Below, one piece after another: positions 3,143 to 35,584 of a stretch of DNA of 64,000 nt; position 1 is the first letter of the stretch, and every line of letters begins with the position of its first letter. Below the pieces are notes generated by a model. The model saw nothing but the letters and a program-made list of their open reading frames with translations, was not told the origin of the DNA and searched no databases. The DNA is from an uncultured Halobacteriales archaeon (GTDB lineage: Archaea > Thermoplasmatota > E2 > JACPAO01 > JAHFTW01). The stretch covers positions 38,526-102,525 of the forward strand of contig CAZXUC010000004.1 of assembly GCA_964643795.1 (NCBI GenBank), in the 5' to 3' direction. The position numbers were made by a program, and so were the translations under genes.

Positions 3143-3145
3143 ACC

Positions 3146-4151: not shown

Positions 4152-4196
4152 AGCGGGGATAGGAACCCGTCCTATCAGAATCCATACCGCCCCGCC
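4152..4196 (-). other. tRNA-like mini-helix; candidate remnant/att of tRNA-iMet at the left end of the island
   Basis: Minus strand reads GGCGGGGCGGTATGGATTCTGATAGGACGGGTTCCTATCCCCGCT-A. It reuses the acceptor strings GCGGGG / CCCCGCTA and the GACGGG of the tRNA at 35511-35584. The exact shared run is only 9 nt (TCCCCGCTA). Confidence 0.3.
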
Positions 4197-4207
4197 CAGG
4201 AGGGAGC

Positions 4208-4597: not shown

Positions 4598-4608
4598 GAG
4601 GCGATGGC

Positions 4609-8330: not shown

Positions 8331-8415
8331 GCTTGCCTCAAGCACACGGCGAGCCGGCGCGAAGTTCTCCGGTTTTTGGTGGATGCCGATTAGTGTTCCC
8401 CAGGCGCGGTGAATC

Positions 8416-9416: not shown

Positions 9417-9503
9417 GTTGTGGCCTCTAGGCCCCGCCACACCGCACACCCATTTTGCTTCATCTCTGGAGGGACGACAGGAGGAAATGGGCGTATTCTT
9501 AAC

Positions 9504-9737
9504 GTGGCTCGAGGTCCCACGAGCGTGCCCTACGTGTACACCAGTCGTGATCAACGCTGGGTGCTCCACTCGCGTGACGTCCTGATGAAGGGCGGGCACA
9601 CATACCACTCGTACTACTTCTGCAAGGAGGGAAAAAAGCCAGCTAGCGGCAAGCCGACCGAGCTTCCTTCCGGAATGAAGGTCGGAGTAAACGTCCGAAC
9701 AGGGATGCCTTATCTGCAGCGCAAAAAGGCTAGCTGA
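9504..9737 (+). CDS. Small hypothetical protein
   Basis: ...WVLHSRDVLMKGGHTYHSYYFCKEGKKPASGKPTELPSGMKVGVNVRTGMPYLQRKK looks like a conserved small archaeal/bacterial protein type. GTG 9504 or ATG 9585 start. Confidence 0.35.
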   Translation: MARGPTSVPYVYTSRDQRWVLHSRDVLMKGGHTYHSYYFCKEGKKPASGKPTELPSGMKVGVNVRTGMPYLQRKKAS

Positions 9738-12381: not shown

Positions 12382-12384
12382 GGT

Positions 12385-16319: not shown

Positions 16320-19300
16320 CTACATCACACTCCACTGAATCGTAAACAAGTTCTCCACCGTCGCTTCCTTGGTCATCTTGAGGCGCATGGCCTCGATGAA
16401 GGTCCCGGTCTCCGCGCGGATGGCGTCCAGGGCCTCGAAGTAGGCTTGTCTGGCCTTACGTTGGCGGTCCAAGAGGTTCGCCTCCTTCTGCTTGAGTTCA
16501 ACCTTGCGCTGGAAGTCCGTTTCGCGGCGCATCTGGCGCACGATGTCATCCAGAAGGGCGTCAATCTCTTCCTCGGTCTTCTTGGCGGAGGTCTTGCGGT
16601 CCTCGGACCACTCCTCAAGGCGCCCTTGCTCTTCCTCGAAGAACTTGCGGTTCGTTTCCATGACGGCTGTCACCTGGGCTTCGACGGCGAGCTGGGCGTT
16701 CATGCCGAGCCTGGTTGCGATCGGCTCTGGAATCGTGGCCGGGGTTACGCGGGGTGAAGGAAGTTGGAACAACTTGTCCGCTGTCTCGGCATCGACTGGG
16801 TCCCCTTTCTCGGTAAGGGCGCTGAGAAGGATGTGCTCCTCTGCCCCGAAGGATTTGACATGGAGTTTCGTTGCCGTGAGCCATCCTGATTGGCCTTTGA
16901 GTTTCTCAAGGACTGTGATTTTTCCTTGGTGCCCCGTGAGTTTGAACTCGACCTTGGCCACGCCGAGCCCCATCGCCTTGGCCGTTTGCAGGACGTACTC
17001 ACCAAGGGGATGTGAGATGCGGTACAGGATGTCGTCGCCCTCCGCTTCGAGTTGTCCGCTCTTGCTGCGCTGGATCAACTGGTATGGCCCCGCGCGGATG
17101 TTGGCCGCGGGGCTCTTGTTGAGACGGAACTCGTGTGTGGAGTCCGTGAATTTGGCTGCGTCGGCCAGCACGTACTTCGTGGTTCGCCAGAACATGTCCT
17201 CGATGCGGCCCAACCGTTGCTGCGCTTCTGCGAAGGAGTTGCGGAACCGCTGTTGGACTTCCGTGTCGAAGTTCTCCAACAGTTTCTGGCGCACGTCCAC
17301 GAAGCGCCGCTTGATGGATTCCGCCATCTCCTCTTGGAGACCCGCGAACTCGCGTTCGATATCGCGACGGTTGCGGCACCTTTGGTAGATTTCTAGGACC
17401 TTCTTCTCGAAGTCAATTCCCGATTCAACGGTCCCCAGCACCTCGTCGCTTGACCCAAAAACGCCCTTAAACAAGTGGAATTTCTCAGTAAGTAGTTCGA
17501 GCACCCGGCGATCGGCTTCGTTCTCGCTGTTGAGGAAGTTCACCACGGCAACATCGTACAGTTGGCCGTAGCGGTGACACCGTCCAATGCGTTGCTCGAT
17601 GCGCTGAGGGTTCCATGGTAAGTCGTAGTTGATGATGAGGGAACAGAATTGGAGGTTCACGCCCTCGCCGCCGGCTTCTGTGGCAATCATGATTGCGGCG
17701 CTGTCCCGGAAATGCTCGATGAGCGCCGTCCGCTGGTCGATATTCCGGCTGCCGCTTGAACGCCCAAGGGGCTCGTTGACCTTCAGCCAGGCATCGTAGA
17801 TCTTGCGCGACTCCGGGTCGTTGGGCTGCCCGTTGAACAGGACAACTTCACCCGCATAGCCATTGGATTCGAGGTACTTCTTGAGGTAATCCTGGGTCCG
17901 GCGGGACTCCGTGAAGACCAGCGCCTTGCGGGCGGCTCCAAGTTTTGCCATCTCTTCGAATCCCTTGGACAATCCAGTGATGAGTGCCTGGGATTTCGAG
18001 TCCACCGTGATGCCGCGGGCGACCCTGATGAATTCGGATAGCTCGCCAATCTCTGCCTTCAACTTCACCGGGTCGACGGGTTGTTCCTCGACAGGAGCGT
18101 CGTCTTCGAATTCTTCCGCTTCATCCTCGTCAATGACCTCGTCCTCCAGCAGGGACTCGATGAGGTTCTTGTCAGTCTCCTTACCGTCCAGCTTGCCTTG
18201 AAGGCGACCGCGAATCTTCTCCAACGTGGATGCCAAAGCGGAACTGGACGAAGCCAGAATCTTGCGGAGCATCAGGACCATGAGTTGGTACTGACCGCGA
18301 GGAAGCGAATAGGTATCGCCTCGTTGCAGGAACTTGCTGACCTCCTCGTGGAGCCAGTTCTCCGGCTGCGACGGGTCGAACGGGACCGTGATCGGGAACC
18401 GCTTCGTGTACGGAATGTATTCCTTGACGTCGCGCCGAAGAGTCCGCCACAGCAGCGGTTTCAGGCGATGCCGGAGTTGCTCGAAGTCGGCGTCGGGCCC
18501 TCCGAATTGCGCCTTGAAGGATTCTCGGTCGCCAAAGGCGTGTTCGTCAACAAACGTTGCCAGGGAATGAAGTTCGTCCAGCCGGTTCTGGAGCGGGGTA
18601 GCCGTGAGCAGAATCTTGCGGCACGATTTGAGGGATTCGCGCAGGTTCGTTGCTGCCTGCGTCTTGGCGTTGCGAAGCCGGTGTGCTTCGTCGATGACGA
18701 CCAGGTCCCACGGGACCTTTGCCAAGTCGTCCTTGCACTTGCTGGCATAGAGGTACGACACAATGACGACGCTCGCGTCTTGCTGGAACGGGTTGCCGTA
18801 ACCCTGTTTCCGAAGTGTTTGGTATTCTTTGCCGTCGAGGACGATTCCGGGGAGGCTGAACTTTCCGCTTAGCTCCAGCTGCCACTGCTTGCGAATGGAT
18901 GCCGGGCAGATGACAAGGAGACGTCGCTTGCGTTCAGCCCAAAATTGGCAAAGAACCAGGCCGGCCTCAATCGTCTTCCCGAGACCAACTTCGTCGGCAA
19001 GGATGACCCCCTTTGAGAGTGGTGAGCGAAGTGCGAACACGCCGGCTTCGACCTGGTGCGGCTGAAGATCCACGCGGGCGTCAAAGAGCGATTGTGAGAC
19101 GCGACCAACGCCGCCTGCAGGAGCCATGCGAGTCACCTCGTGCGCAAAGAGGCGTGCGTGGTATGCCGAGACACCGTGGATTGCCGGCGGCACATTCCCG
19201 GAGACAGACTGAAGAGTGGGAGTGTAGCGCTCCGCCGGGGCAGCTTCGGTCCGAAGGGCGACGCCTTCGGGCTGGTTCTGTTCGGCTCTGATTGCGCGCG

Positions 19301-19445
19301 CGGACTCACGGGACTTGTTTGGGCCGGATGGGGGCGGAGCGGACGGAGTTTCGGGCGCAGCGCGACGTGTAGTCTTGTTCTTGGCTAGGCCGCCGCGGCC
19401 GCGAATAAACTCATCCAACGAGTCCCTGATACCCCGCCCCGCCAT
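16320..19445 (-). CDS. SNF2-family helicase with long C-terminal coiled-coil region
   Basis: PHQVEAG...ILADEVGLGKTIEAG, VVIDEAHRLRN, LLTATPLQNR and GGEGVNLQ...WNPQRIEQRIGRCHRYGQ. Confidence 0.85.
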   Translation of the reverse strand: MAGRGIRDSLDEFIRGRGGLAKNKTTRRAAPETPSAPPPSGPNKSRESARAIRAEQNQPEGVALRTEAAPAERYTPTLQSVSGNVPPAIHGVSAYHARLFAHEVTRMAPAGGVGRVSQSLFDARVDLQPHQVEAGVFALRSPLSKGVILADEVGLGKTIEAGLVLCQFWAERKRRLLVICPASIRKQWQLELSGKFSLPGIVLDGKEYQTLRKQGYGNPFQQDASVVIVSYLYASKCKDDLAKVPWDLVVIDEAHRLRNAKTQAATNLRESLKSCRKILLTATPLQNRLDELHSLATFVDEHAFGDRESFKAQFGGPDADFEQLRHRLKPLLWRTLRRDVKEYIPYTKRFPITVPFDPSQPENWLHEEVSKFLQRGDTYSLPRGQYQLMVLMLRKILASSSSALASTLEKIRGRLQGKLDGKETDKNLIESLLEDEVIDEDEAEEFEDDAPVEEQPVDPVKLKAEIGELSEFIRVARGITVDSKSQALITGLSKGFEEMAKLGAARKALVFTESRRTQDYLKKYLESNGYAGEVVLFNGQPNDPESRKIYDAWLKVNEPLGRSSGSRNIDQRTALIEHFRDSAAIMIATEAGGEGVNLQFCSLIINYDLPWNPQRIEQRIGRCHRYGQLYDVAVVNFLNSENEADRRVLELLTEKFHLFKGVFGSSDEVLGTVESGIDFEKKVLEIYQRCRNRRDIEREFAGLQEEMAESIKRRFVDVRQKLLENFDTEVQQRFRNSFAEAQQRLGRIEDMFWRTTKYVLADAAKFTDSTHEFRLNKSPAANIRAGPYQLIQRSKSGQLEAEGDDILYRISHPLGEYVLQTAKAMGLGVAKVEFKLTGHQGKITVLEKLKGQSGWLTATKLHVKSFGAEEHILLSALTEKGDPVDAETADKLFQLPSPRVTPATIPEPIATRLGMNAQLAVEAQVTAVMETNRKFFEEEQGRLEEWSEDRKTSAKKTEEEIDALLDDIVRQMRRETDFQRKVELKQKEANLLDRQRKARQAYFEALDAIRAETGTFIEAMRLKMTKEATVENLFTIQWSVM

Positions 19446-19448
19446 GCG

Positions 19449-20549
19449 TTAATCCTTCCTTGAAGCGACAATCTTGGCAAGTGGCTTCGTCGGCGCTTCG
19501 ATAGCAAGGTTCTGGTTTCCGTCCTCGAATTCAAGGTCAAGCACCTTGTCGACGCGCTGCTTGAAGCGCTTTACGTGATCGTCACCCTTTCCGTACGCGT
19601 CCGCAGCCTTAACCAGATGAACGCCGACCTCCTCGAATCGCTCGTAGAACTTCTCGAAGCTGTATTGGACGTCGGCAAGTCCTTCCTGCAGCTTCTTGGC
19701 ATTCTGTAGCAAATCCACATTATGCACGGCAATCAGAATAACCTGCAGGAATGCGTAGAATGTGTTCGGGCTCACGGGAATGACCTTGCGGGCGTGCGCA
19801 TAGTCAATGAGGCCGTTCTCATCGTTCAATCCGTTCCGAGCCGCGATGGTCTCGTAGTAGACCGCCTCGGACGGAATGAACATCAAGGCGAAATCTGAGG
19901 TGCCCTTTTCGGGCTTGATGTACTTCGTTGCAATGCTGTCAATCTGAATTTTCACGGCCGCCTCGAAAGCCTTCCAAGCGCGACGTTTGCTTTCATCGGT
20001 ATCGGCTGTCAAGTAACGTTCGTAGTCGTCACGGGGGAACTTGGCATCAATCGGGAAAATGACTCCCTTGAACTCGACCACGGCATCGACGGTTTCCCGC
20101 CCGTCAATCGAGAACTGAGGTTTCCAGATGCCCGCGGGGAGCACGCGGCTCAACATTTCCTCCAAGATTTCTTCGCCGTAGTTGCCCCGAAGCTTGGGTG
20201 ATTGCAAGAGCGATTTCAGGTCCTCGGCGAGCTTGCTCGCTCCTTGCTGTTGGTTGACGAGTTGGCCGATCGTGGTGCCGAGCCCCGTCATGGCCTTGTG
20301 CATCTCAAGGGAATTTTTCTGAAGGGCCGCATTGGACTTCTCAACGTCTTGATGTGTGGACGCAACCGATTGCTGGATTGAGGATTGGAACGCGATGAGC
20401 CGAGTGTCCACGGCCAAGGCAATCTCGTTCTGAAGCGCCTTGCCGTCAGGTCCCTTGCGACGAAACAGGAGGGCCATCGCCACGAGCAGCAGGCCAATTG
20501 AATTCACGATCAGCAACGCGGTGACGGTGTCCATCGCTATCCACCCCAC
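19449..20549 (-). CDS. rmuC: RmuC-family protein (N-terminal TM/coiled coil, C-terminal REase-like domain)
   Basis: N-terminal TM helix, coiled coil, then ...GTSDFALMFIPSEAVYYETI...VIPVSPNTFYAFLQ, typical of RmuC. Confidence 0.75.
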   Translation of the reverse strand: MGWIAMDTVTALLIVNSIGLLLVAMALLFRRKGPDGKALQNEIALAVDTRLIAFQSSIQQSVASTHQDVEKSNAALQKNSLEMHKAMTGLGTTIGQLVNQQQGASKLAEDLKSLLQSPKLRGNYGEEILEEMLSRVLPAGIWKPQFSIDGRETVDAVVEFKGVIFPIDAKFPRDDYERYLTADTDESKRRAWKAFEAAVKIQIDSIATKYIKPEKGTSDFALMFIPSEAVYYETIAARNGLNDENGLIDYAHARKVIPVSPNTFYAFLQVILIAVHNVDLLQNAKKLQEGLADVQYSFEKFYERFEEVGVHLVKAADAYGKGDDHVKRFKQRVDKVLDLEFEDGNQNLAIEAPTKPLAKIVASRKD

Positions 20550-20684: not shown

Positions 20685-23600
20685 TCACCCAAGCCGCACC
20701 ATCCCTCCACCGAGCGGCAGGTGCACGACGGCGTGGGCCTTGCCTCCCGTTAGACGCACGTAACACGCCAATTGTCCTGCGTGTTCGAGGGCTTTCTCGC
20801 CCCACCCGGCCTCGACGAAGTCGGCGCTCTTGTGGTCGACAACGAGGGTGCCTTGCGCCGAGTCAAGCACGAGGTCGATTGTGCCCGCCCACATTCCCCC
20901 CTCGTCGCGGGGCCCGGCGACGGGGACCTCGGCGCTCCAGCGGGCACCGGGCAAGTTGGTTTCGACCCACGCTTCGAGCCGGTCCCCGGCCCGGACTAGC
21001 ATGTGGGGTTCAAGTTCGCCTTGTCGGCCCCACCGGGCAAGGATCGCAGCGGCATGCGATTCCTTTGTGGCTTGGGGTAATCCCCGTAACGCGGGAAGGC
21101 TTGCCAAGTACGCGTGGACGGCCTGACCCAAGGACTGCCAATCGTCCGTCTTGACGCGGGGGAATGGGTGGTCGCCGGGAAGCGCCTCGGCACGTGTTGA
21201 GATCTCTCCGCTGGTTGGGACCTTGCTGGGGCTCGCAAAACGGTCCGGGAAGGAAGTGTGACCGCGGCTGGCCTCGAACCATTGCGTGGCCGTCGATGAG
21301 GGTTCACTCTCAGTTGGTGTTTGATTGCACGTGATGGCTGTGTAGGTCGTGTTCAGAAGACTGGATGGCCCAATGTTTGGCAAGACGGTGTTGACGGCGG
21401 GAAGCAAATCGAGGGCGTTGCTTCCACCTTCAGCGAGGATGAGCGTTGTTTTGGCGCGTGTAAAGCCGACATACAGCAGTCTCTGGGTCTCTTCGTCATG
21501 GTCCCGCTGAATGGTTTGGCCCTCCGGACTCTGGCGTGCCGCGTCCTGAACGCCTGAGCCGTCTGCGTTGAGGCCTCCCATGTACGTCCGTCCGAACGGA
21601 TACGGCCAGTACCGGATCTGGCGACCTTCGAGAGGCTTGCCCTGGGCGGCGTTTCCGCCGTCAACATGAATGGTGAAGGGGTGCGGGTCAGGTGCCTGGC
21701 CGTCCTGCAGCAGGATGACACAAGGCCACTCCAGGCCTTTGGCAGCCCAGAGCGTGAGGATTCGGATGGCCGGCACGCTCGCCGGCACGGGGAGCAGGTC
21801 TTGCTTCTTGGCGGCGAGGTTCTCGAACCAGTAGATGAGTCCGGTGAGGGTCGCGGCCTTCCCCTGTTGTTCGGATTCATCCTCGTATTTCCTGGCCATC
21901 AAGAGGAGCTCATCGAGATTGGCCGCCCGGCGCATCGGGTCCCCCCACGCGGCGATTAGGTCGGCCAGATGGAGCGCCTGGATGACGGCACCTACAACCC
22001 CGTTGGGGGGCGTGGTCTTGGCGTCGATCTCGCGCACCGCCGCTACGGTTGCGCCTTGAATTTGTCCACCAGGATTGGCAAGTGCCTCGTGGAACCAGGC
22101 GGGCGTGTCGTTTGCATCATCTAGGTGCCGAAGAGTCGCGGCGGCCAGGGCGTCATCGGTGTCGGCCACGAGGCGCAACCCGGCGAGCACCATGATGCAC
22201 TCGCGCGTGTTGAAGAGCCCAGATGTTTGGACGAGGCACGGGATGTTGAGGCGTTGGAGGTCCTTGGCTACATCGCGTGCGTCGTCGTTCTTGCGCACGA
22301 GGATGGCGATGTCGCTCGGTGGCATCGTCTGGATGAGCGTCTGCATCTGAGCCAAGAATGCGGCCCGGCGCGTTGGGCGATTCTTGCCTTCAAGTTGCCA
22401 GCGCTCAATGCGGGCGGGACCTTTGTGGTGAGCCGCTAACCTTGTGGAATGTCCGAAGATGGGCTCGAAGATGCGGTTGACGCATTCGACGAGGCCCTCC
22501 TGACTGCGGTAGTTTTTGTTTAGAGTTCGCCGCCTATTTTCGGGAATCGTGCCTAGTACGTCCTGCATGAGCCGCGCGTCGGTTCCTCGGAAACCGAAGA
22601 TGGCTTGCTTGGCGTCGCCGACCCAGAGTGATTCCTTGGCAATCGCAGCCAATTCCTGGAAGATGGCGAGTTGGATGGGATTGGTGTCCTGGAACTCGTC
22701 AACCACGACGAGGTCAAGGTCCAGGTCGCTGCGGACGGCGGGCGTGCGCAACAATTCCAAAAGACGTTCTTCGAGATCCGTAAAGTCGACGAGACCGCGG
22801 CTCGTCTTGTAGACGCGATACCTACCCTGCAATTCTAAGACGCGCTCTACAAGGCAGAGAGTGAACGATCGTAGGTCAGCGTGCAGGAGACGATGCACGT
22901 TGGCTCGGCGGGCCAAGCCGGTAAGGACGGCGGTGTCGTTCTCGCTTTTCTTGGACCAAGCCAATTTGGCGACCTTGCCCCACGCCTGCCATTGTGGGTG
23001 GGCTGTCCGTGCGAAATCTTCGAGTTCCTCCAAGGCGTCGGCAGTTTTCTTGGTGGCGTCCCCATTGCCGCGCACGCGTTGCGCCATGTCGCGACATTGA
23101 ACGTAAAAGTCTGGAAAATCCGGCAGGTCGACGCTGTTCCCGGCGCTCATGATTTGGATAAGGCGCTCCGTGCCGGCGACCATGCTAGCGCGAAACTCGT
23201 CGTCGCCGAGCGCATTGGACCGCTTCTCGTCGAGGATTTCCAGCAGAAGCATCTGAGGCTCGATTTCCCCAAGACGACGAGCGAGACGGTCCAGCTCCCG
23301 CAGGCCTTCGGAAGGCATCTCAGCTAAGATGCGCCGCAAGTGGCGTTCCTGGGCTTTCTCTTCCAGGGGCTCTAGTTGAGGACTGATGCCGAGGTGAACG
23401 GCGTAGCGGGATAGGAGGCGATGGCCAACGCTGTGAACCGTGCCGATCAGCGCGATGCGAACATTGGCAGCCAGTTGCAGCCGTTTGGCGGGAGTGAGGG
23501 CAGGGTCGCCTGGTTCGGGATGGAGAAGGCGTTGCTGGATGCGGTCCTGCAACTCGGCGGCGGCCTTCCTGGTAAACGTGGTAGCAAGAATAGCGTCAGG

Positions 23601-23696
23601 TCGGGCGCGGTTGTCCGCAAGCCGCTGGACCAGCTCACCCGTGATGGTGTATGTCTTGCCTGAACCAGCGCCGGCCTGGTACAACGTGACCGTCAT
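20685..23696 (-). CDS. UvrD/AddA-like helicase with C-terminal RecB-type nuclease
   Basis: YQAGAGSGKTY, TFTRKAAAEL, VVVDEFQDTNPIQ; C-terminal GTIDLVLD...LVVDHKS. ATG 23696 overlaps the AddB-like stop (ATGA). Confidence 0.75.
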   Translation of the reverse strand: MTVTLYQAGAGSGKTYTITGELVQRLADNRARPDAILATTFTRKAAAELQDRIQQRLLHPEPGDPALTPAKRLQLAANVRIALIGTVHSVGHRLLSRYAVHLGISPQLEPLEEKAQERHLRRILAEMPSEGLRELDRLARRLGEIEPQMLLLEILDEKRSNALGDDEFRASMVAGTERLIQIMSAGNSVDLPDFPDFYVQCRDMAQRVRGNGDATKKTADALEELEDFARTAHPQWQAWGKVAKLAWSKKSENDTAVLTGLARRANVHRLLHADLRSFTLCLVERVLELQGRYRVYKTSRGLVDFTDLEERLLELLRTPAVRSDLDLDLVVVDEFQDTNPIQLAIFQELAAIAKESLWVGDAKQAIFGFRGTDARLMQDVLGTIPENRRRTLNKNYRSQEGLVECVNRIFEPIFGHSTRLAAHHKGPARIERWQLEGKNRPTRRAAFLAQMQTLIQTMPPSDIAILVRKNDDARDVAKDLQRLNIPCLVQTSGLFNTRECIMVLAGLRLVADTDDALAAATLRHLDDANDTPAWFHEALANPGGQIQGATVAAVREIDAKTTPPNGVVGAVIQALHLADLIAAWGDPMRRAANLDELLLMARKYEDESEQQGKAATLTGLIYWFENLAAKKQDLLPVPASVPAIRILTLWAAKGLEWPCVILLQDGQAPDPHPFTIHVDGGNAAQGKPLEGRQIRYWPYPFGRTYMGGLNADGSGVQDAARQSPEGQTIQRDHDEETQRLLYVGFTRAKTTLILAEGGSNALDLLPAVNTVLPNIGPSSLLNTTYTAITCNQTPTESEPSSTATQWFEASRGHTSFPDRFASPSKVPTSGEISTRAEALPGDHPFPRVKTDDWQSLGQAVHAYLASLPALRGLPQATKESHAAAILARWGRQGELEPHMLVRAGDRLEAWVETNLPGARWSAEVPVAGPRDEGGMWAGTIDLVLDSAQGTLVVDHKSADFVEAGWGEKALEHAGQLACYVRLTGGKAHAVVHLPLGGGMVRLG

Positions 23697-26326
23697 GCGA
23701 GCTGCCTCCGCCCGCATAGAGTAGCGTAATCGCAATACTTGCACGCGGCGTGCTCCTGCGCCTCCGGGTCGAGCGCCAATTGTGAACCAGGCGCCCACTG
23801 AGCAGGATCCTGCAAAGGCCGGGCCACGATGACGCCGGAATTCATCCACGTGGATGCTTCCGTGAGGGCTTGTTCAAAGCGCTTCCACGTTTCCGTAATT
23901 GCAGGCCCATCGATGGGGCGCTCAACGCCACGAAGCGCTCCCCCTTTGGGTGTGAGCATGCGGTTATCGCCGAGAATGAAGTACGCACCGCCTGTGACAA
24001 TCTGGGCGCCCTCCTGACGACTGTGGGCATAGGTAGCAAGTTGCAGCGCGCGTCCAGAGGTGAGTTTTTCCGCGTGGGCTTGGGCCCCGCCCAGCTTGAA
24101 GTCGATGATTGCTTCGCCATCCGTGCGCCGCACAACACAATCGATGCTGCCCCGCAGCGGTAGGCCGTTGACGGCCCCTTCCGTGGGAACCTCGAGGCCG
24201 GCAATCTCGTACTCCCCCTCTCGGAGCACCGTACAGAGTTGCTTGACAGCTGCCCGCAATTCGCGCTTGAGGGTGTTTCGTTCCGTGAGTTTGCGGGGGA
24301 TGGCCAGGGGCGCGGCGTTGCGTTCAAGCAATTCATCGAAGCAGGCATCGAGGCGTTGCGCGGCCTCCTCCGGCGCTGGGACTGGCCCGGCCGGCAGAAT
24401 ATGCCGAAGAAGGTCGTGTGCGAAATTACCCTTTAGGCGACCATCCTCCGGGATGTTGGCAATGGCGCTCGGGCGAACGCCCAGGGCGTACTTGAGCGTC
24501 CATTTTAGAGGGCAGGCAAGCTGGTCTTCGAGGGCCGTGGCACTCGTATGTTTTGGGAGCGGAACTTTGTGGCCGGCGAGGCTCCACTCTACGCGAACGC
24601 CCGGGGCAGGAGCACGCTCGACGGCGCGTGTGGGAAGGCCAACGCGACCCGCTTGGAGGGCGGCTTCCAGTTGTGGGAGCGGCCCGCCCCGCCGCTTATT
24701 CACCACCAGGTCACCGTGCACACGTAGCCAGAGTGGATGCCGACTTTCTTCGATGGCCGCCAAGTCGATGACGAGTAGATTTTTGGGGCGAGCAAGGCCG
24801 CGAGCCTCGGCGGCTCTTAGCGCGGCTGAATGGTCGTCCACATCAATGGCGGCTTGCCGCAAGTGGCGGGCCTCCGATGGCGTCCAGTGTGGCCGATTGG
24901 AGACGGGCGCAATGGGTGCAAGCCAGACGAGGTGGTCGCAGTCGGATACGTGTGCCAAGCTGGCAGCATACGTGGCACCGCCGGCCTGGCTGTCGTGAGG
25001 GACGTCGCTGCTACTGTCCCGCCGAACTTCGTCAAGAAGACGGTCGAGTTGCGCCTCTGAAATGTGCGTGCCAAGTTGCGCCGCGATTCGCCCCAGGGCG
25101 CTTGCTTGGCTTGAGGCAGATTGCAGAGCCGCGATGAGATCCTCGTCGGGTTGCTCTTGCAGGCGTTCCCAAGCGGCCCGACCACTAGCCCATTGCGCAA
25201 CCAAACCACATCGGGACTCCACCAGCCTAGTGGGTGCATCCTCGCCAAGGGCGATGCGGTCATGGTCGAGCCAAACGGCGATCTTCGCGGCCTTCTTCTC
25301 ACCGTCCTCCTCACCAGCAATTGTCTTGATAGCGGCGCTCCACGCAGCACTTTGGTAACCGGGCTGCTTTTCGAGGGCCCTCGCAAGCTCGTATCCGACA
25401 CTGCGCAGTGGACCAACGGGGAGAACGAGAAGGTCCAGCAGGACGTAGGGATTGACGGGGTTCCAAAGCAGTTGCATTGCCAGGGGCAATACTTGGTGGG
25501 CGGGTTGCGCGCGGCTCTCTCGAGTTACGCCCATCGTGGGTTGGCCATCGGCGGCCAAGGCCACATCGAGCAAGTTGGCGACCTCGGGGTGTCCGGCATG
25601 GACGACGACGCGCGGCCGGTCTCGCATCCAGCGCGCCACGAATTGGACGGCGGCGTGGCGACTCGCTGCCTGGAGCGCAATGACAGACGCGTCGATTGGG
25701 CATGCATTGGCTGCGTCGTTTCTCAGATTCTGCTGGATGATGGCGAGCGAACCCGCGCCGCGAGGTGGCGTTGGTGCTTGATGTGCGACGGTGAGGCGCC
25801 CGAGAAGGCGGCGCCAAAGTGGTCGCCACGCCTCTGTCGGTTCCTCAAGGGTGATGGTGTGGGCGGGGACCTTGAGCCCCAGCTCCAGTGCCGCAACGAC
25901 GAGCAGGATTCGATCAGGAATTCCCGGAAGCATGCCGACTTGTTCTAAGCGCTCGAATTCGGCAGTGATGGCGGGATTGCCGGCGCCGCCGGGTTTCCAC
26001 CCCCCCAGGAGCAATTCGTCCCGGCGCTTGAGTTGGTGCGAGGCGGTGGCCCACGGGTCCGCCTTGAAACTAGGCGCCCAAAGGCCGGAACCGTGGCGCT
26101 TGATGCAGTCGTGGTATTGGACGACGCGGTCAGTCCACGCAGTGCGGGGACCGTTCAGTCCAAGTTGAGTTTCGAGCCACCCCAACAATTGCTCCGGGCC
26201 GCCCCGCACGACATTGATCTCGTGGGTGCCCTCCGGGGGACGACGCACGCCGCCGTACATCTGGATGTGAAGGCGGCAGGGTGGAATCCTTGTGTCTGCG
26301 ACGGATGGTTGCTTTGCACCAGGCAC
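23693..26326 (-). CDS. AddB-like PD-(D/E)xK nuclease partner (degenerate helicase body, Fe-S Cys cluster)
   Basis: SATALEDQLACPLKW, GSIDCVVRR...AIIDFKLGG, LQLATYA and C-terminal CKYCDYATLC. GTG 26326 is the preferred start; the ORF-track start at 26533 gives a non-protein-like leader. Confidence 0.65.
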   Translation of the reverse strand: MPGAKQPSVADTRIPPCRLHIQMYGGVRRPPEGTHEINVVRGGPEQLLGWLETQLGLNGPRTAWTDRVVQYHDCIKRHGSGLWAPSFKADPWATASHQLKRRDELLLGGWKPGGAGNPAITAEFERLEQVGMLPGIPDRILLVVAALELGLKVPAHTITLEEPTEAWRPLWRRLLGRLTVAHQAPTPPRGAGSLAIIQQNLRNDAANACPIDASVIALQAASRHAAVQFVARWMRDRPRVVVHAGHPEVANLLDVALAADGQPTMGVTRESRAQPAHQVLPLAMQLLWNPVNPYVLLDLLVLPVGPLRSVGYELARALEKQPGYQSAAWSAAIKTIAGEEDGEKKAAKIAVWLDHDRIALGEDAPTRLVESRCGLVAQWASGRAAWERLQEQPDEDLIAALQSASSQASALGRIAAQLGTHISEAQLDRLLDEVRRDSSSDVPHDSQAGGATYAASLAHVSDCDHLVWLAPIAPVSNRPHWTPSEARHLRQAAIDVDDHSAALRAAEARGLARPKNLLVIDLAAIEESRHPLWLRVHGDLVVNKRRGGPLPQLEAALQAGRVGLPTRAVERAPAPGVRVEWSLAGHKVPLPKHTSATALEDQLACPLKWTLKYALGVRPSAIANIPEDGRLKGNFAHDLLRHILPAGPVPAPEEAAQRLDACFDELLERNAAPLAIPRKLTERNTLKRELRAAVKQLCTVLREGEYEIAGLEVPTEGAVNGLPLRGSIDCVVRRTDGEAIIDFKLGGAQAHAEKLTSGRALQLATYAHSRQEGAQIVTGGAYFILGDNRMLTPKGGALRGVERPIDGPAITETWKRFEQALTEASTWMNSGVIVARPLQDPAQWAPGSQLALDPEAQEHAACKYCDYATLCGRRQLA

Positions 26327-26330
26327 GCCG

Positions 26331-26537
26331 TCAGAAGTCGTCGTCTGAGTTTTCACCACCATCGTCCACCTCCTGATCGCCAGATTCGCTGTAGGACTCC
26401 TCGCCAGCGTCGCCCCAGGCTTGTGCACCAGACGCGTCCTTGTGTGCTCCGTCTTCATGGCGGCTATCGCCGAAAAGCCAGTGCCAGGCCATGGCGCCGA
26501 AGAGAAAATCGAACAGCCCACCGCGACGGCCATTCAT
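26331..26537 (-). CDS. 68-aa protein with aromatic head and strongly acidic tail ending in DDDF
   Basis: MNGRRGGLFDFLFGAMAWHWLFGD...GEESYSESGDQEVDDGGENSDDDF. Its ATG overlaps the Csa3-like stop (ATGA 26534-26537). Confidence 0.45.
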   Translation of the reverse strand: MNGRRGGLFDFLFGAMAWHWLFGDSRHEDGAHKDASGAQAWGDAGEESYSESGDQEVDDGGENSDDDF

Positions 26538-27172
26538 GCTAACGCCTCCAAGTCGAATGATCCCACATCTGGCAGGAGCGTGACGACATGTTGTTTTCCA
26601 TCTCGCGCCGTCGAAACCAGCCCCATTTCCTTTAGCTCGTGGACGTGGGCACTCACCGTAGACATGGCAAGCTTCAGGCCGCTTGCGAGGCCGGAGACAT
26701 TGGCTGGACCTTTCCGCTTGAGGCGCTGCAAGAGCGCTCGCTTTGTATCGCCGAGGCCGCGAAGGCTGCGGAATGCCTTCAGGGGTACGATTGTGCCTTC
26801 CTTGGTGTCGTATTCGTCGTAGTAGAGAAGTGGCAAGTCGTGCGTGGAACAGAAAATGGTGGCAGCCATAATCATGGGCCTCGGCCCACTGCTTGCATTG
26901 AAGATGACGTGCCGGCCCGCGGGCACGCTGTCGAGCGTCCGCACGAAATTGTGAAGGGCCTCCTGGATGTCGAATCCGTCCTTCGCGGCGTGCTCGTGCA
27001 GCTTCACCTTGAAGGTTTCACTCACCTGTTGGACAGCCTTGAGAGTCGCTGAATGCCTCGGGTCCTTGGACGGACCAAAAAACAAGTGCATCTCCCGGAT
27101 CTCTGGATACTGTCGAAGCGGCGCCACCACCAGAGAAGCCGTGTACCCCATGGTGGCGAATAGGACCGTCAA
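26534..27172 (-). CDS. Csa3-like CARF + winged-helix transcriptional regulator (no CRISPR-cas nearby)
   Basis: MTVLFATMGYTASLVVAPL..., NASSGPRPMIMAATIF (CARF-like), and C-terminal LLQRLKRKGPANVSGLASGLKLAMSTVSAHVHELKEMGLV (wHTH). Size and layout match Csa3. Confidence 0.6.
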   Translation of the reverse strand: MTVLFATMGYTASLVVAPLRQYPEIREMHLFFGPSKDPRHSATLKAVQQVSETFKVKLHEHAAKDGFDIQEALHNFVRTLDSVPAGRHVIFNASSGPRPMIMAATIFCSTHDLPLLYYDEYDTKEGTIVPLKAFRSLRGLGDTKRALLQRLKRKGPANVSGLASGLKLAMSTVSAHVHELKEMGLVSTARDGKQHVVTLLPDVGSFDLEALA

Positions 27173-27193
27173 CGCGGTTCGGATAAGCGACGG

Positions 27194-27234
27194 CCATATA
27201 ACGTTCGCTTCGGGTTGGTGACGAAACGTTCAAT
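27194..27234. promoter_or_regulatory. Divergent promoter/operator candidate between the Csa3-like and CBASS operons
   Basis: Two AACGTT palindromes (27200-27205 and 27225-27230) are embedded in ATAACGTTCG ... CGAAACGTTCAAT. A TATA-like ttatat on the minus strand lies about 25-30 nt upstream of ATG 27172. Confidence 0.2.
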
Positions 27235-27258
27235 GGGAGTGGCCACTGTCCCTAACCG

Positions 27259-28224
27259 TTGACGGTGCCGCCCCGAAGCTATTCACTTGGCAGCACCGGC
27301 CTGAGAACACCACTGGTTGTGCCGTCGTTCTCCAGCAAGGACCCACTCGCTTCGCGTCGACTCAAGACCCTTGGCCACCTTCTGACCGCGCGCCTGCTGG
27401 TGTCCGCCCTCGACCTGAGCCGGCGCCACATTGCATACGAGGACCTTAGCGGGAAAAAAGTGGTGTTTGTTGACAGCGGCGGCTACGAAGCGATGGTCCA
27501 TTCCCGGTGGGCCAAGGCACTCAACGTTCCATGGCAGCCATGGACCGCAGCGGAGCAGGAACGAACGCTAACCATGCTTCCGATGGGGCCCGCCTATGTC
27601 GTGACGAGTCTCGACGAGCCATCCCCGCCCTCACCGGCGGTCCAGGTCGACAAGGCACGGGCCTTTCTTGCGCGCCACTCGGGATTCGATGTTGAATTCC
27701 TGATGAAGCCGGCCGCTGGCCTTCGAGAAATCACCGATCAGGACATTGAGGTCGTGTCATCTCAATTGGACGGTTTCATGACGCTGGGAATCACGGAGGA
27801 GGATCTTGGCCCGTCCCTGGAGGCCCGAGTACGTCGCGTTGCGGAGGTACGGCGCAGCCTCACTCGCCTAGGAGTTGACATCCCCCTCCACATCTTTGGA
27901 TGCTTGAATCCAACCATGGTTTGCCTCTATACCGCGGCTGGAGCCGACGTGTTCGATGGCCTGGGATGGACACAACATGCATTCGATTTCGGGGCCGCAA
28001 TCCACCTTGACGATTTCACAATCACCTACAAGGACTGGCCAGCAAGCGAGGGCCGGATGCATCGCGACGTCGATGCGATGAACCTGAGAGTGCTCGACGC
28101 GCTCCAATCGGCATTGCAGGCGGCCGAAGGACGTGTCGACCAGGAGGCCCTGGCCAAAGCGGGTTTGCACCGGCTTCCCTTCCACGCGATGACTGAACTG
28201 CTGCAACGTGTGGGGGTTCTCTGA
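27259..28224 (+). CDS. TGT-like (tRNA-guanine transglycosylase/DpdA-like) CBASS type IV accessory protein
   Basis: TIM-barrel TGT signatures ...VFVDSGGYEA..., PLHIFGCLNP and GADVFDGLGW. TTG start; its stop shares one nt with the CD-NTase ATG (TGATG). Confidence 0.65.
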   Translation: MTVPPRSYSLGSTGLRTPLVVPSFSSKDPLASRRLKTLGHLLTARLLVSALDLSRRHIAYEDLSGKKVVFVDSGGYEAMVHSRWAKALNVPWQPWTAAEQERTLTMLPMGPAYVVTSLDEPSPPSPAVQVDKARAFLARHSGFDVEFLMKPAAGLREITDQDIEVVSSQLDGFMTLGITEEDLGPSLEARVRRVAEVRRSLTRLGVDIPLHIFGCLNPTMVCLYTAAGADVFDGLGWTQHAFDFGAAIHLDDFTITYKDWPASEGRMHRDVDAMNLRVLDALQSALQAAEGRVDQEALAKAGLHRLPFHAMTELLQRVGVL

Positions 28225-29153
28225 TGGGGGGAAGTGGTGGCGGTGGCGCCTATGGCGGTGGTGGAGGGGGCAGGAATACCAATGCCGCGGCACGGGCGCG
28301 CACTGTAACCAACGTTGAAGAGGCTCGAATCAAGGAAGAGCAGGCGCTGCAGGAATCTTTGCATAGAACGCGGAAGCCTAACGATGGCGAAGTTCGCGAG
28401 AATGTCCAGCGCGTGGTGGACGACCTGAATGAGAAGACAAAGCTCAACGCCACGGCCGTCCTTGGGGGAAGCGCTTCGAAAGGCACCTACGTCGAGGGTA
28501 TCAGCGACCACGATGCGGTCGTCAGAATTCCCACCGAGGCCGCGCGGGGGAAAGGCCCTCGTGAAATCTTGGCCCTGCTCGCGGAAAGGATTCGAGACAC
28601 CCACCCCGCAGCAACGGATGTCCGAATTGGGCGCATGGCGGTCACCGTCGTAGAGAACGGCCGCGAAACGCAGTACGTTCCAGCAGTCCGGGACGGTCGT
28701 TACATGAGGTTTCCAGTTCCAGGCGAAGACCGCTGGGGTAATGCATGCCAGCCGAGGAAGTTCGTTGACAAGCTCAACCGGGCGAATGCGCGTCTAGAGG
28801 GCGCAGTCAAGGAAGCAATCCGAGCATTCCGACTGGTCCAGGACAAGCACTTGCCGAAGGACCAACACCTTGACGGCTATCATGTCGAGTCGGTTGCCCT
28901 TCTGGCCTTTCGCAACTACGAGAAAGGAAAGCCGCGCACCAAAATGGTAGAAGACATGGTGCGTGCGGCCGCAGGAATCCTGCGAAAGCCAGTCCGAGAT
29001 GGCACAGGCCAAAGTCTTCACGTGGATGACAAGTGGGGAGCCGCAAACAGCCCGGAACGCCAGGCCACCAGCCACGCCCTCAAGGGGCTAGCGGACCGCA
29101 TGAAGACCGATCGGGAAGAAGGAGGTACATTCTGGCGAGATCTGGAGAAGTAG
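28224..29153 (+). CDS. CD-NTase (cGAS/DncV-like nucleotidyltransferase) with Gly-rich N-terminal tail
   Basis: Pol-beta NTase motif GGSASKGTYVEGISDHDAVV (GS...DxD); N-terminus MGGSGGGGAYGGGGGGRN. Confidence 0.7.
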   Translation: MGGSGGGGAYGGGGGGRNTNAAARARTVTNVEEARIKEEQALQESLHRTRKPNDGEVRENVQRVVDDLNEKTKLNATAVLGGSASKGTYVEGISDHDAVVRIPTEAARGKGPREILALLAERIRDTHPAATDVRIGRMAVTVVENGRETQYVPAVRDGRYMRFPVPGEDRWGNACQPRKFVDKLNRANARLEGAVKEAIRAFRLVQDKHLPKDQHLDGYHVESVALLAFRNYEKGKPRTKMVEDMVRAAAGILRKPVRDGTGQSLHVDDKWGAANSPERQATSHALKGLADRMKTDREEGGTFWRDLEK

Positions 29154-29710
29154 CCGACGAACCATTCCTCGAACGCCTGTACAAGCGCACCAACCTGCAG
29201 GTGTCCGTCCGCTCGTTCTACGCACGGCGATTGGAATTGCAACAGAAGATAACGGATGTTCTTCTTCTTGCCACGGCCGTCCTCCTAGCCGTTGCGACCT
29301 TCATGGACCGCGACCTTCCCCCAAAGTACCTCAACTTGGATGCGGACGCATTCATGGTCCTCATGGGGATCCTTGGGATTGCAAACTTTGCAGTAGCCGT
29401 TCTATTGTTGTACCTGCGACCCGGTCCAAAGGGGGATTTGCAGCGAGCAGCGCGGCGATACTACACGGAAATCAACCGTGAAGTCAAGCGCGCCCTCGAC
29501 ACCACGCAAGCTGTCGACGAGGCCGACCTTGAACGGCGATTCTTGGCTGACACCATGTTCCCGGATGTCCCCGACAATTTGTTCCTGATTTACAAGGCGC
29601 GTCACATTCGCAAGATTAGCGTGAGCCGCCTTCTAGATCAGGGGCTCTCCCTGAAGGAAGCGATGCGCCGCGTAAGGCTACGAGAGAAGGGGGAGCCCCG
29701 CATCAACTAA
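29129..29710 (+). CDS. 2-TM effector, SLATT-like
   Basis: Two central TM helices (ITDVLLLATAVLLAVATFM; MVLMGILGIANFAVAVLLLYL) flanked by helical regions, directly after the CD-NTase. The start is unresolved. GGAGGT at 29121-29126 precedes ATT 29129 and CTG 29132. The first canonical start is GTG 29201, and ATG 29033 would overlap the CD-NTase by 120 nt. Confidence 0.5.
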   Translation: MLARSGEVADEPFLERLYKRTNLQVSVRSFYARRLELQQKITDVLLLATAVLLAVATFMDRDLPPKYLNLDADAFMVLMGILGIANFAVAVLLLYLRPGPKGDLQRAARRYYTEINREVKRALDTTQAVDEADLERRFLADTMFPDVPDNLFLIYKARHIRKISVSRLLDQGLSLKEAMRRVRLREKGEPRIN

Positions 29711-30241
29711 TGCAGCCGCGCGCTCCAGGCAGCTTCTGCAATTCCCGCAGTGCATCGGTCCGGGCTCCTCGCAACTGAATGTCTGCTCCAATGGAACGGC
29801 GAGGGCGCGTGCAATCTCCGCTACCTCCTGCTTTGACATCATGATGAACGGGCAATCCAGCCGGACCATTCCGCCGAATCGCTCGTCAAGCTGGCCTTGA
29901 ATTGCGTCGCGAAACTCTGGCTTGGTGTCCGCGTACTCGCATCCTGCATGAATGCCTAGTGAAATGAGTCCGGGTGGCACTATGTGCGGGACCACCGCCT
30001 CGATCAAGGCCGCGTTTCGGCCCGGAATTTCTCCCGAGGTCGGGGTCAAACCTCGGACTTCATGCGAATGGAGAGGCGTGCGAAATTGGGTAGCCAGCCC
30101 ATGTGCACAACCCCATTCGGATTCTGCGCTTGCTTGGCCGTAGTTGATCCAGTGCAGCGCCACGTCATGGCCAAGTGACCGATAGTGGTAGGCCAAGGTC
30201 GCGCTATCCATTCCCCCGCTCAGCAGGAGGTGGACCTTCAC
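29678..30241 (-). CDS. QueC-like PP-loop ATPase (CBASS type IV accessory)
   Basis: VHLLLSGGMDSAT (PP-loop), INYGQ, IPGRN and C-terminal CGNCRSCLER zinc motif. GTG 30241 overlaps the upstream stop (GTGA). Confidence 0.7.
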   Translation of the reverse strand: MKVHLLLSGGMDSATLAYHYRSLGHDVALHWINYGQASAESEWGCAHGLATQFRTPLHSHEVRGLTPTSGEIPGRNAALIEAVVPHIVPPGLISLGIHAGCEYADTKPEFRDAIQGQLDERFGGMVRLDCPFIMMSKQEVAEIARALAVPLEQTFSCEEPGPMHCGNCRSCLERAAALVDAGLPLLS

Positions 30242-30687
30242 GTTTCGTCCTCGCCAAGGTTTTGGATTGCCCAACCAATTCCCTTCCAAATCTGGCGTTG
30301 CTTGCGCCATTCGGATTCACGCCGGCGATGCTCAAGTTTCTCAGCCTCCAGTGCGAGGCGACGGGCTTCGCTTGATCCCGTTTGTTGAAGGGTGTTGACG
30401 CGGTCCCGTAGGGCAACCAGGTCGCTTTCAATGCTGCGGGCGATGCGTGCGTTTGAGTTGGCCATTGCCTCGAACGCCCGGCTTTGGCGGGTTTGGTGAT
30501 AGACCGCGTAAGCCGCAATGGCGAGGGAAGCAACGCCCGTGCTTGCACCAAGAACCGCCGTCAAGACCAGGATGTCCACATCATCAGGAGGAACGGGCGC
30601 ACGCATTAGGGTTCCGAGAAATTCTCGCGGGCCGGATGTCGAAAAATGACAGTTGATCCTGCCCAAGAGTACACGATTATTGGCCAC
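30238..30687 (-). CDS. Single-pass membrane / coiled-coil protein, translationally coupled to the QueC-like gene
   Basis: TM helix ILVLTAVLGASTGVASLAIAAYAVY followed by a coiled coil (...LRDRVNTLQQ...LALEAEKLEHRRRESEW...). Confidence 0.4.
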   Translation of the reverse strand: MANNRVLLGRINCHFSTSGPREFLGTLMRAPVPPDDVDILVLTAVLGASTGVASLAIAAYAVYHQTRQSRAFEAMANSNARIARSIESDLVALRDRVNTLQQTGSSEARRLALEAEKLEHRRRESEWRKQRQIWKGIGWAIQNLGEDET

Positions 30688-35224: not shown

Positions 35225-35510
35225 CCGCCGGTTTGGACGAATTCGGTGTACGGCATCAAGCCTAACTGGCGCCGCCTCTACCCTTTGTCCGCCCCCAAGG
35301 CCGTACGAACCACCGCTACATGGATCCCGCGTGGGTCCGTGTTTTAGGCAGAACGTATGCGATGGCGCCGGAACCCACTACAAGGTCGCATGCTGCGCAG
35401 GTACGGCTCAATGACTAAGTCACGGAATCCCTTGGCCCGGCTCGTCCGACAGGGTCAAGCCCTGCACCACACGGTTCGCCCTGGAGTATGTGAAAGACTG
35501 GCCCTGAAGT

Positions 35511-35584
35511 AGCGGGGAATCGATTTGAACGATTGATCTACGGGTTATGAGCCCGTCGGGATCTCCTGGCTACCCCACCCCGCT
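35511..35584 (-). tRNA. Initiator tRNA-Met (anticodon CAT)
   Basis: Minus strand: AGCGGGG-TG-GGGT-AGCCAGGAGA-TCCC-G-ACGGG-CTCATAA-CCCGT-AGATC-AATCG-TTCAAAT-CGATT-CCCCGCT, discriminator A. It has a 7-bp acceptor with A1:U72, G29-31:C39-41, A14, G18G19 and a T-loop. The sequence is close to known archaeal tRNAiMet. CCA is not encoded. Confidence 0.9.

Follow-up and report, generated by a model that had tools for sequence, protein, structure and literature searches.

A Csa3-like CARF regulator with a conserved operator at the head of non-CRISPR defence-type operons in Thermoplasmatota, some of them with an AddAB-like helicase-nuclease pair

A 64,000-nucleotide (nt) stretch of DNA from an uncultured Halobacteriales archaeon, assigned by GTDB to the Thermoplasmatota (assembly GCA_964643795.1, contig CAZXUC010000004.1, positions 38,526 to 102,525; hereafter the window), carries on its minus strand a gene for a Csa3-like regulator made of a CARF domain and a winged helix-turn-helix (wHTH) domain, followed by a small open reading frame (ORF) and by genes for an AddB-like and an AddA-like protein. 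Judged from related loci, the regulator and the palindromic operator in front of it appear to constitute a portable header placed before differing defence effectors, and not a partner dedicated to the AddAB-like pair. This Thermoplasmatota family of Csa3-like regulators, equipped with an operator and heading non-CRISPR defence operons, is new in the sense that no description of it was found in the literature searched. The combination of genes is also absent from the PADLOC v2 models, and literature searches yielded nothing that presents the pair as a defence candidate, which agrees with the statement of an earlier note on this DNA that no system of this composition had been described. That note had also called the regulator an orphan, and it is one: repeat searches and Rfam revealed no CRISPR array in the 64-kb window, and about 29 ORFs scanned with PADLOC and Pfam include no cas gene, the sole cas-related matches being weak Cas4 matches to a PD-(D/E)XK domain. 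Arrays and cas genes are likewise absent from the 12 related loci as covered by their contigs.

At the protein level, the regulator (positions 26534-27172, minus strand; 212 amino acids (aa) from a TTG start) gives full-length matches to two PADLOC models, Csa3 (2e-14) and CARF3 (3e-22), the latter label being a PADLOC model name on which its meaning rests. Against the curated Csa3 model TIGR01884 it reaches 3.6e-15 and 55.9 bits, below the cut-off of 60.2. In Pfam it matches HFX_2341_N (1e-7) and an ArsR/HVO_A0114-type wHTH (HVO_A0114, HTH_20 and HTH_5 at residues 140-197), while Csa3_N is recorded as a faint precomputed match in its relatives. The AlphaFold 2 (AF2) model, built on 14 homologues, has a predicted local distance difference test score (pLDDT) of 90.9, and its best Foldseek matches in the PDB are the apo and cyclic tetra-adenylate (cA4)-bound forms of S. 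solfataricus Csa3 (2wte, 6wxq, 6w11; E 1e-10, template modelling (TM) score 0.66-0.70), followed by the CARF domains of Csm6, Can2, Cam1, Card1 and a ring nuclease; ArsR/MarR structures also match the wHTH region in structure comparison. Two pocket motifs are present, T7-M-G9-Y10-T11 (T-h-G-F after beta1) and N92-A-S94-S-G96-P-R98 (G-h-R after beta4). In an alignment of 16 members, 42-77% identical to the window protein, position 10 carries Y, F or H, and no variation is seen at G9, T11, N92, S94, G96 and R98. In Csa3a, Gly9-Phe10 and Gly96/Arg98 bind cA4 through its ribose, base and phosphates (PMC8699464), and positions 9-10 and 96-98 of the regulator coincide with these contacts. By hidden Markov model (HMM) match, modelled fold and pocket motifs the protein thus qualifies as a genuine Csa3-type CARF-wHTH regulator with predicted ligand binding, and the earlier assignment of its N-terminal domain to CARF holds on the same three counts. 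It is filed as a Csa3-like family and not as Csa3, because both the curated score threshold and the CRISPR association fail.

The palindrome ACGTTTCG-N9-CGAAGCGA (core TTCG-N9-CGAA) lies at 27205-27229 between the divergent start codons, about 53 nt before the regulator start codon, and is the predicted binding site of a Csa3-like dimer; no other exact copy occurs in the 64-kb window. It adjoins a TATA-like box (TTATAT, 27196-27201, minus strand) centred about 26 nt ahead of the TTG start. When the 90 nt upstream of the regulator gene were aligned for 12 non-redundant loci, three blocks emerged: TTGAACGTTTCG-N9-CGAAGCRA; a TATA-like TTAT(A/C) located 3-4 nt beyond the operator block, with TTAT nearly invariant and in the same columns in all 12; and a CGAAC-like box directly before the start codon. 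Every one of the 12 loci has the core TTCG-N9-CGAA, with at most one mismatch, between -52 and -63 relative to the start codon, against a background expectation of 0.02 per 30-nt zone. In the recognition helix, S171, T172 and H176 do not vary across the 16-member alignment, so that invariant residues match an operator conserved at a fixed distance from the TATA-like box and the start codon. It is very probable, from this sequence pattern, that the regulator controls its own operon through the operator. The right half-site abuts the B recognition element (BRE) and TATA region, and repression is for this reason favoured over activation. Established archaeal promoter geometry is the basis for a further reading: a TATA-like box some 26 nt from the start codon fits a leaderless mRNA, and we infer that the regulator operon is transcribed as a leaderless or near-leaderless message. 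On the other side, the operator is 29 nt from the start codon of the divergent gene (27259), with TTCAAT at the position expected for a divergent TATA box, and in most other loci the divergent gene begins 23-46 nt from the operator as computed from coordinates.

The family is rare. Among 5.8 billion proteins, a single-sequence search recovered 18 clusters and a profile search 31 tight relatives; a genome contig scan of 185,579 GTDB species returned two loci, both in Thermoplasmatota metagenome-assembled genomes, and a metagenome contig scan one, whereas scans of viral contigs and plasmids gave no match. The family is identifiable in Thermoplasmatota only; these relatives, together with archaeal promoter features, suggest the same affiliation for the window. 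The census comprises 12 non-redundant loci, and roughly one in two comparison loci is a short metagenomic contig. In all 12, a co-directional defence-type operon begins with the regulator gene, and the gene that follows usually shares a 4-nt overlap with it. The kind of operon varies. An AddB-like gene followed by an AddA-like gene occurs in the window and in three independent loci besides it (L008-10, L012/13 and L015), with identities to the window proteins of 42-48% for the regulators, 42-54% for the AddB-like and 45-60% for the AddA-like proteins, that is, four loci with the same order at 42-60% identity. In L001, L006, L017 and L021 the regulator precedes a single-chain UvrD-PDDEXK nuclease accompanied by PDC-S02/NucS-like, Mrr-like or GmrSD genes. 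DndFGH-like genes take this place in L005, a DruE-like helicase with SNF2 and MmeI-like methylase genes in L002, and genes of unknown kind in L007 and L023. The chain of the window, for which the note had allowed a chance juxtaposition never repeated elsewhere, is consequently a recurrent one. The regulator is not specific to the AddAB-like genes named in the note, since it also heads UvrD-nuclease, GmrSD, DndFGH-like and DruE-like operons.

The slot directly after the regulator is the variable one. In the window it encodes 68 aa, in L008 145 aa, in L012 290 aa and in L015 a Zn-ribbon protein of 80 aa, mostly with 4-nt overlaps; outside the window these ORFs span 80-290 aa and are not homologous across loci. 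Of the four-gene arrangement proposed earlier, the regulator, AddB-like and AddA-like order recurs while the small ORF is replaced by unrelated ones. No homology was found among the divergent neighbours or the ORFs of this slot, except between L008 and L012, between L007 and L023 and, weakly, between L008_145 and L021_165. Two traces of rearrangement were noted. In L008, the end of the AddA-like gene is overlapped by a second, truncated regulator-like gene (15552-16115; 36% identity over residues 97-185), behind which lies a second cassette, of DndFGH-like type. In L009, a 122-aa ORF after the AddA-like gene (15636-16004) is the leftover C-terminus of a protein of the single-chain UvrD-PDDEXK family, ending FCDYRILCP. 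Both sequences point to cassette shuffling.

Within the window, the four minus-strand ORFs and their ATGA overlaps are present as previously reported, and the genes are chained via 4-nt overlaps or short gaps. The ATG of the 68-aa ORF (26331-26537) overlaps the regulator TGA, and the ATG of the 1003-aa AddA-like gene (20685-23696), a start that agrees with the homologue alignment, overlaps the TGA of the AddB-like gene, which ends at 23693. The start of the AddB-like gene is ambiguous. The GTG at 26326 proposed in the note (877 aa) is possible, but the NCBI call is the ATG at 26362 (889 aa), which has GGAGGTG 6 nt upstream and overlaps the 68-aa ORF by 32 nt; residues 1-24 of this longer form are disordered in the predicted structure. 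A 946-aa ORF (23693-26533) was rejected as the true AddB-like gene: its N-terminal extension scores -0.125, an off-frame value, and homologue similarity begins downstream. The 68-aa ORF scores 0.257 per codon, compared with a mean of 0.365 (standard deviation 0.13) for in-frame windows of the same length and a maximum of -0.094 for off-frame ones; it is probably coding, because its score falls within the in-frame distribution and above every off-frame window. Its product, translationally coupled to the regulator, is hydrophobic at the N-terminus and acidic in its tail, which ends DDDF, and gave no family match in Pfam or PADLOC. The acidic C-terminus with a terminal aromatic residue (GGENSDDDF) recalls the tip of the bacterial single-stranded DNA-binding protein (SSB; DDDIPF), which recruits helicases and nucleases, and the 101-aa gene that occupies the same slot in L017 also ends in acidic residues plus Y. 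By this analogy, the 68-aa protein might be an adaptor or an inhibitor of the helicase-nuclease.

The identities of the two large proteins given in the note are borne out by fold and motifs (a UvrD motor, RecB-type nucleases and a cluster of four cysteines). The AddA-like protein combines a superfamily 1A (SF1A) UvrD-type motor with a C-terminal RecB-type nuclease: Pfam detects UvrD-helicase (7.5e-46), UvrD_C and PDDEXK_1, and the motifs GSGKT at 11-15 (Walker A), DEFQD at 333, DHK at 954-956 and QLACY at 975 (QxxxY) are intact. Its best NCBIfam model is addA_alphas, with 160.7 bits against a cut-off of 860.75. For the AddB-like protein, the only sequence match in Pfam is a C-terminal PDDEXK_1 (6e-25); there is no NCBIfam match and no PDB match by sequence search, and a profile search against the PDB returns nuclease domains only, so that fold comparison is required for identification. 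Its AF2 model (pLDDT 87.4) has B. subtilis AddB as the best Foldseek match (4ceh_B/3u44_B; E 3e-20, TMq 0.50-0.55), followed by AdnA and RecC. Walker A is absent, the nuclease motifs are kept (D741, D754-x-K756, Q774..Y778), and the cysteines C617 and C874-x2-C877-x5-C883 are arranged like the Fe-S staple of AddB and Cas4. Neither protein reaches the equivalog thresholds of AddA and AddB (TIGR02773, 02784, 02785, 02786). The pair is best regarded as AddAB-like by architecture, with an activity predicted from its motifs, and not as an AddAB orthologue, because the score of the AddA-like protein, 161 bits, falls far short of the 861-bit cut-off.

Two other classifications were discarded. Membership in Gabija was rejected, given that the GajB matches of the AddA-like protein cover generic helicase regions and that its partner is AddB-like and not OLD; the OLD gene of the same genomic island matches Old (1e-91) better than GajA, and RmuC and SNF2 genes lie between it and the AddA-like gene. 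Orthology with the single-chain UvrD-PDDEXK proteins of L001 and L006 was also dismissed, as the AddA-like protein of the window is about 23% identical to them over the helicase core while L001 and L006 share 50% with each other. On this sequence comparison, two distinct helicase-nuclease families appear to sit behind the same regulator.

Beyond the regulator loci, the AddB-like family extends to 1844 clusters at 50% identity (E<=1e-30), which makes it a large one, and it is mostly bacterial. The nearest named relatives belong to Planctomycetota (35-40% identity). In a complete Planctomicrobium genome the pair lies behind an XRE-HTH gene and an ImmA/IrrE M78 peptidase gene, in an island with AbiE, an AAA_13 ATPase, a DncV-like protein and a resolvase. 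Full-length AddB-like relatives (27-29% identity) were found on 26 plasmids, 17 of them conjugative, always followed by a UvrD gene and with transposase, ubiquitin-like/MPN/ThiF, ImmA/IrrE and DUF4238 genes as neighbours. In L011, the pair occurs without the regulator and with an M78 peptidase nearby; its AddA-like protein shares the 45-60% identity range with those of L008, L012 and L015. The note had considered that the pair might prove to be a housekeeping locus in relatives, and in those sampled it resides instead on islands or plasmids (Planctomicrobium and the 26 plasmids). Where sampled, and with archaeal genomes covered less than exhaustively, the pair therefore looks like an accessory, regulator-gated module. 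Further full-length relatives (26-29% identity) were seen in three IMG/VR contigs (L024-L026) and in MT835507.1 (23880-26459), a human-faecal 'Bacteriophage sp.' record without annotation; from these sequences, the family also seems to travel on viruses or prophages.

On the other side of the operator lies what appears from its gene content to be a complete, self-sufficient type IV cyclic-oligonucleotide-based anti-phage signalling system (CBASS). The note had placed an operon with a cGAS/DncV-like nucleotidyltransferase (CD-NTase) gene 86 bp from the regulator start. The 86-bp gap to the divergent TTG at 27259 stands, but the first gene is that of the TGT-like Cap10 (27259-28224, plus strand; PADLOC TGT 1.1e-60), with the CD-NTase gene further in (28224-29153, plus strand; PADLOC Cyclase 3.4e-65, Pfam SMODS, NCBIfam CBASS_cyclase_b 2e-43). 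Next comes a two-transmembrane (2TM) effector gene at 29150-29710 (plus strand; PADLOC 1.5e-16). Its long ORF opens at 29033 and shares 120 nt with the CD-NTase gene. Since the PADLOC match to this ORF covers residues from 45 onwards, translation probably begins at the GTG near 29150, which overlaps the CD-NTase stop. The QueC-like Cap9 (29678-30310, minus strand; PADLOC QueC 9.9e-45, Pfam QueC 1.2e-21) is convergent with the effector. The CD-NTase possesses GS and DHD active-site motifs, and its N-terminus, MGGSGGGG, fits the M(G/S)G(G/S)GG motif that Cap9 and Cap10 deazaguanylate (bioRxiv 10.1101/2025.04.06.647259). The composition, this N-terminus included, is that of type IV CBASS, with the differences that no OGG gene was seen in the operon and that cap9 is on the opposite strand; the system is a neighbour of the regulator cassette and not a part of it. 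The regulator may gate this operon too, which is plausible because the operator is 29 nt from the CBASS start codon.

The association of the regulator with a CD-NTase is confined to the window. Only there, in one of the 12 loci, is such a gene adjacent, and the other divergent neighbours are unrelated; tblastn with the window CD-NTase and Pfam scans (E<=0.1) found no CD-NTase or other cyclase in the remaining loci. The ligand of the regulator is unlikely to be defined by this CD-NTase, because the latter is present at one locus of 12 yet the CARF pocket is invariant throughout. Signalling from CBASS to CARF is not supported as a general logic, and sensing of the CD-NTase product at this one locus is possible. 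The earlier proposal that CD-NTase signalling is coupled to the helicase-nuclease could hence not be sustained as formulated, both for this distribution and for the presence of a 2TM effector of its own in the CBASS. Other genes of related kinds were observed near the regulator. L001 has a RelA_SpoT synthetase-like gene (8291-9914; Pfam 1.8e-12) in the operon divergent from it and L007 an HD_4 (SpoT-type hydrolase) gene (8481-9029) within the regulator operon, which makes three loci with nucleotide-messenger enzymes beside the regulator when the window CD-NTase is counted. In L012, a stretch 3-7 kb upstream of the regulator (883-5546) encodes TIR, caspase-like (Peptidase_C14), TGT-like, OGG-like and QueC-like proteins and a second TIR protein, with no CD-NTase by tblastn; these look like type IV-CBASS-style accessory genes in different company.

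The picture that we favour, with a probability of about 0.55, is that of a self-contained mobile archaeal defence cassette, in which a ligand-gated regulator and its operator control an AddAB-like effector. The cassette, horizontally mobile, would consist in order of operator and promoter, Csa3-like regulator, small variable ORF, AddB-like gene and AddA-like gene. In the resting state, a regulator dimer bound to TTCG-N9-CGAA would keep its own operon low by autorepression, and probably the divergent operon too. Upon infection, a messenger of the cyclic-oligoadenylate type would bind the CARF pocket, reorient the wHTH domains and switch the promoter or promoters. The induced AddAB-like heterodimer, with a single SF1A motor and a pair of RecB-family nuclease domains, of which one is presumably Fe-S-stapled, would then load on free double-stranded DNA ends, either of linear viral genomes or of fragments made by the adjacent type III restriction-modification (R-M), Old and GmrSD-like systems, and degrade them. 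In Sulfolobus, Csa3a controls DNA-repair helicase and nuclease genes (PMC5587795, PMC7515695), and cA4 alters the geometry of its wHTH domains (PMC8699464).

Several points weigh against this proposal. The evidence is computational for every step. Repression and activation are not distinguishable by reading the sequence. The census amounts to some 12 loci, many on short contigs, across which the regulator has no constant messenger-synthase partner. Past the AddA-like gene there is a gap of 135 nt before the next co-oriented block, and the transcript may end there or run on into that block. DNA binding by Sulfolobus Csa3a in vitro is not cA4-dependent (PMC8699464), and the haloarchaeal relative HFX_2341 regulates globally and not locally (PMC11434293). 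Lastly, the pair could serve recombination or repair in mobile elements, given its relatives on conjugative plasmids, three viral contigs and one phage record.

This last point leads to a rival explanation, in which the pair is a recombination or end-processing module of a mobile element (for repair, integration and excision, or replication restart) under a local stress-responsive regulator. Canonical AddAB is a repair enzyme, and the size of the AddB-like family and its presence on conjugative plasmids, viral contigs and a phage record would suit such a role, as would the recombination-associated RmuC gene downstream of the AddA-like gene in the window and the regulation of repair genes by Csa3a in Sulfolobus (PMC7515695). 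We consider it unlikely, with the neighbours being defence genes, and not replication or transfer genes, in every sampled locus, with the same regulator heading restriction-type effectors (GmrSD, Mrr, DndFGH-like, DruE-like), and with the bacterial pair placed behind regulators of the defence-gating type (XRE plus M78 peptidase). A direct wiring, by which the CARF domain senses the product of the adjacent type IV CD-NTase and couples CBASS to the expression or control of the AddAB-like enzyme, is more doubtful. It draws on the shared 86-bp control region with the operator 29 nt from the Cap10 start, on the intact CARF pocket, on a CD-NTase with active-site and type IV N-terminal motifs, and on the RelA_SpoT and HD_4 genes of two other loci. 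Against these, the pocket and operator are common to all 12 loci while a CD-NTase is near only one of them, tblastn with it matching no other, and the CBASS is already provided with a 2TM effector; moreover, the pocket residues are those used for cA4 in Csa3a, whereas CBASS enzymes make cyclic di- and trinucleotides (bioRxiv 10.1101/2025.04.06.647259).

Defence islands are typically crowded and shuffled, and the packing of these genes could in principle be fortuitous, with a regulator that controls itself only or distant genes. HFX_2341 acts globally and is unlinked to its targets (PMC11434293), and the divergent neighbours are unrelated between loci. The start/stop overlaps of 4 nt, the gene order kept in four loci at 42-60% protein identity, the first position of the regulator in 12 of 12 co-directional defence-type operons and the lack of a second operator copy in the 64-kb window all speak against coincidence, which we regard as very improbable. 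A broader version of the preferred cassette is as doubtful as the direct CBASS wiring. It would make the regulator a nucleotide-messenger-gated master switch in a bidirectional promoter, turning on defence cassettes on both sides when a cyclic oligonucleotide is sensed; candidate sources of the messenger would be the neighbouring CD-NTase, synthetases of the RelA/SpoT type or a type III CRISPR system at another place in the genome. If true, abortive-infection signalling by CBASS would be wired to a RecBCD-like, DNA-destroying second line otherwise lacking in archaea, a transcriptional cross-talk between CBASS and a nuclease whose output is a previously unnamed AddAB-like antiviral system.

With regard to known regulators, the closest parallels are Csa3 and Csa3a (2WTE, 6W11, 6WXQ), with which the protein shares the two-domain layout, a length of about 210 aa, the fold (TM 0.66-0.70) and the pocket motifs T-h-G-[FY] and G-h-R at the same positions. 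It differs in being only about 16% identical to Csa3a and below the TIGR01884 cut-off, and in its setting: Csa3 is typically linked to type I-A systems, whereas the regulator, with no CRISPR-cas context in the window or the 12 loci, comes first in the non-CRISPR defence operons that encode it in cis. The site also differs, the operator abutting BRE/TATA whereas that of Csa3a is 12 bp upstream of the BRE (PMC8699464). HFX_2341 (Crr of Haloferax mediterranei; PF19810/PF25212) has a like HFX_2341_N N-terminal domain and HVO_A0114-type wHTH, and like the regulator it is a Csa3-like protein of Euryarchaeota-type archaea that is not CRISPR-linked and is probably a repressor (PMC11434293). Unlike the regulator, which is about 212 aa long, rare, island-borne and at the head of defence operons, HFX_2341 has 308 aa, is inherited vertically in most haloarchaea and acts globally on metabolic genes. 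CARF-type regulators outside CRISPR reportedly also include MM_0565, and such regulators have been recognized in principle. This precedent is documented for HFX_2341 and more generally (PMC4012209; PMC11434293).

A functional resemblance links the family to bacterial sensor-regulators. BrxR/CapW (wHTH-WYL) and CapH/CapP (XRE HTH plus M78 peptidase) are portable sensor-regulators located 5' of unrelated bacterial defence systems and autoregulated through palindromic operators. The header logic is the same, and bacterial AddAB-like relatives have XRE and M78 genes in the position of the regulator. The sensor is CARF instead of WYL or a protease (no WYL or M78 domain was detected in the regulator by Pfam or PADLOC), the promoters are of the archaeal TATA/BRE type, and the likeness is functional only. 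The effector pair resembles AddAB (B. subtilis, 3U4Q/4CEH), AdnAB and RecBCD in the order addB then addA, in the UvrD motor with RecB nuclease and in the helicase-like scaffold with a RecB nuclease of the Fe-S-stapled kind. It differs from AddAB in an AddB-like protein 12-13% identical to AddB and devoid of Walker A, in the smaller size of its proteins (about 890 and 1000 aa), in its accessory context and in its dedicated regulator.

CARF sensors are understood almost wholly within type III CRISPR signalling. A Csa3-like family heading non-CRISPR operons would show that CARF sensing gates other forms of archaeal immunity, and it would be the archaeal counterpart of BrxR/CapW and CapH/CapP. The operator, the invariant pocket residues and the small protein would offer a handle for finding an infection messenger in Thermoplasmatota. 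The AddAB-like family, with its roughly 1,800 clusters at 50% identity, may represent an unnamed defence or anti-linear-DNA system that brings a RecBCD-like activity into archaea.

The cassette is embedded in a lower-GC island that takes up the left half of the window (about 4.6-35.6 kb; window GC 58-68%). This island of about 31 kb is bounded on the left by a tyrosine integrase gene (4609-5742) and on the right by a tRNA-Met gene (35509-35584), beyond which housekeeping genes follow (pyruvate:ferredoxin oxidoreductase, alanyl-tRNA synthetase and succinate dehydrogenase); a repeat search of the window gave no convincing attachment-site direct repeat for it. GmrSD-like/Orf5, type III R-M, Old, DrmD-like, AddAB-like, type IV CBASS, nSTAND3/PDC-S73 and Mrr genes make up its contents. 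The block found 135 nt past the AddA-like stop (9730-20549, minus strand) encodes RmuC, a DrmD-like SNF2 helicase (PADLOC DrmD 2e-205), an Old-family ATPase-TOPRIM protein and the Mod and Res subunits of a type III system. With internal gaps or overlaps of 0-4 nt, it forms an unusual composite operon of R-M and DISARM-like character. L009 and L012 likewise have SNF2 and methylase genes downstream of their AddA-like genes. A 67-nt direct repeat close to the left end of the window (205-271 and 926-992) has copies that are 99% identical and 721 nt apart.

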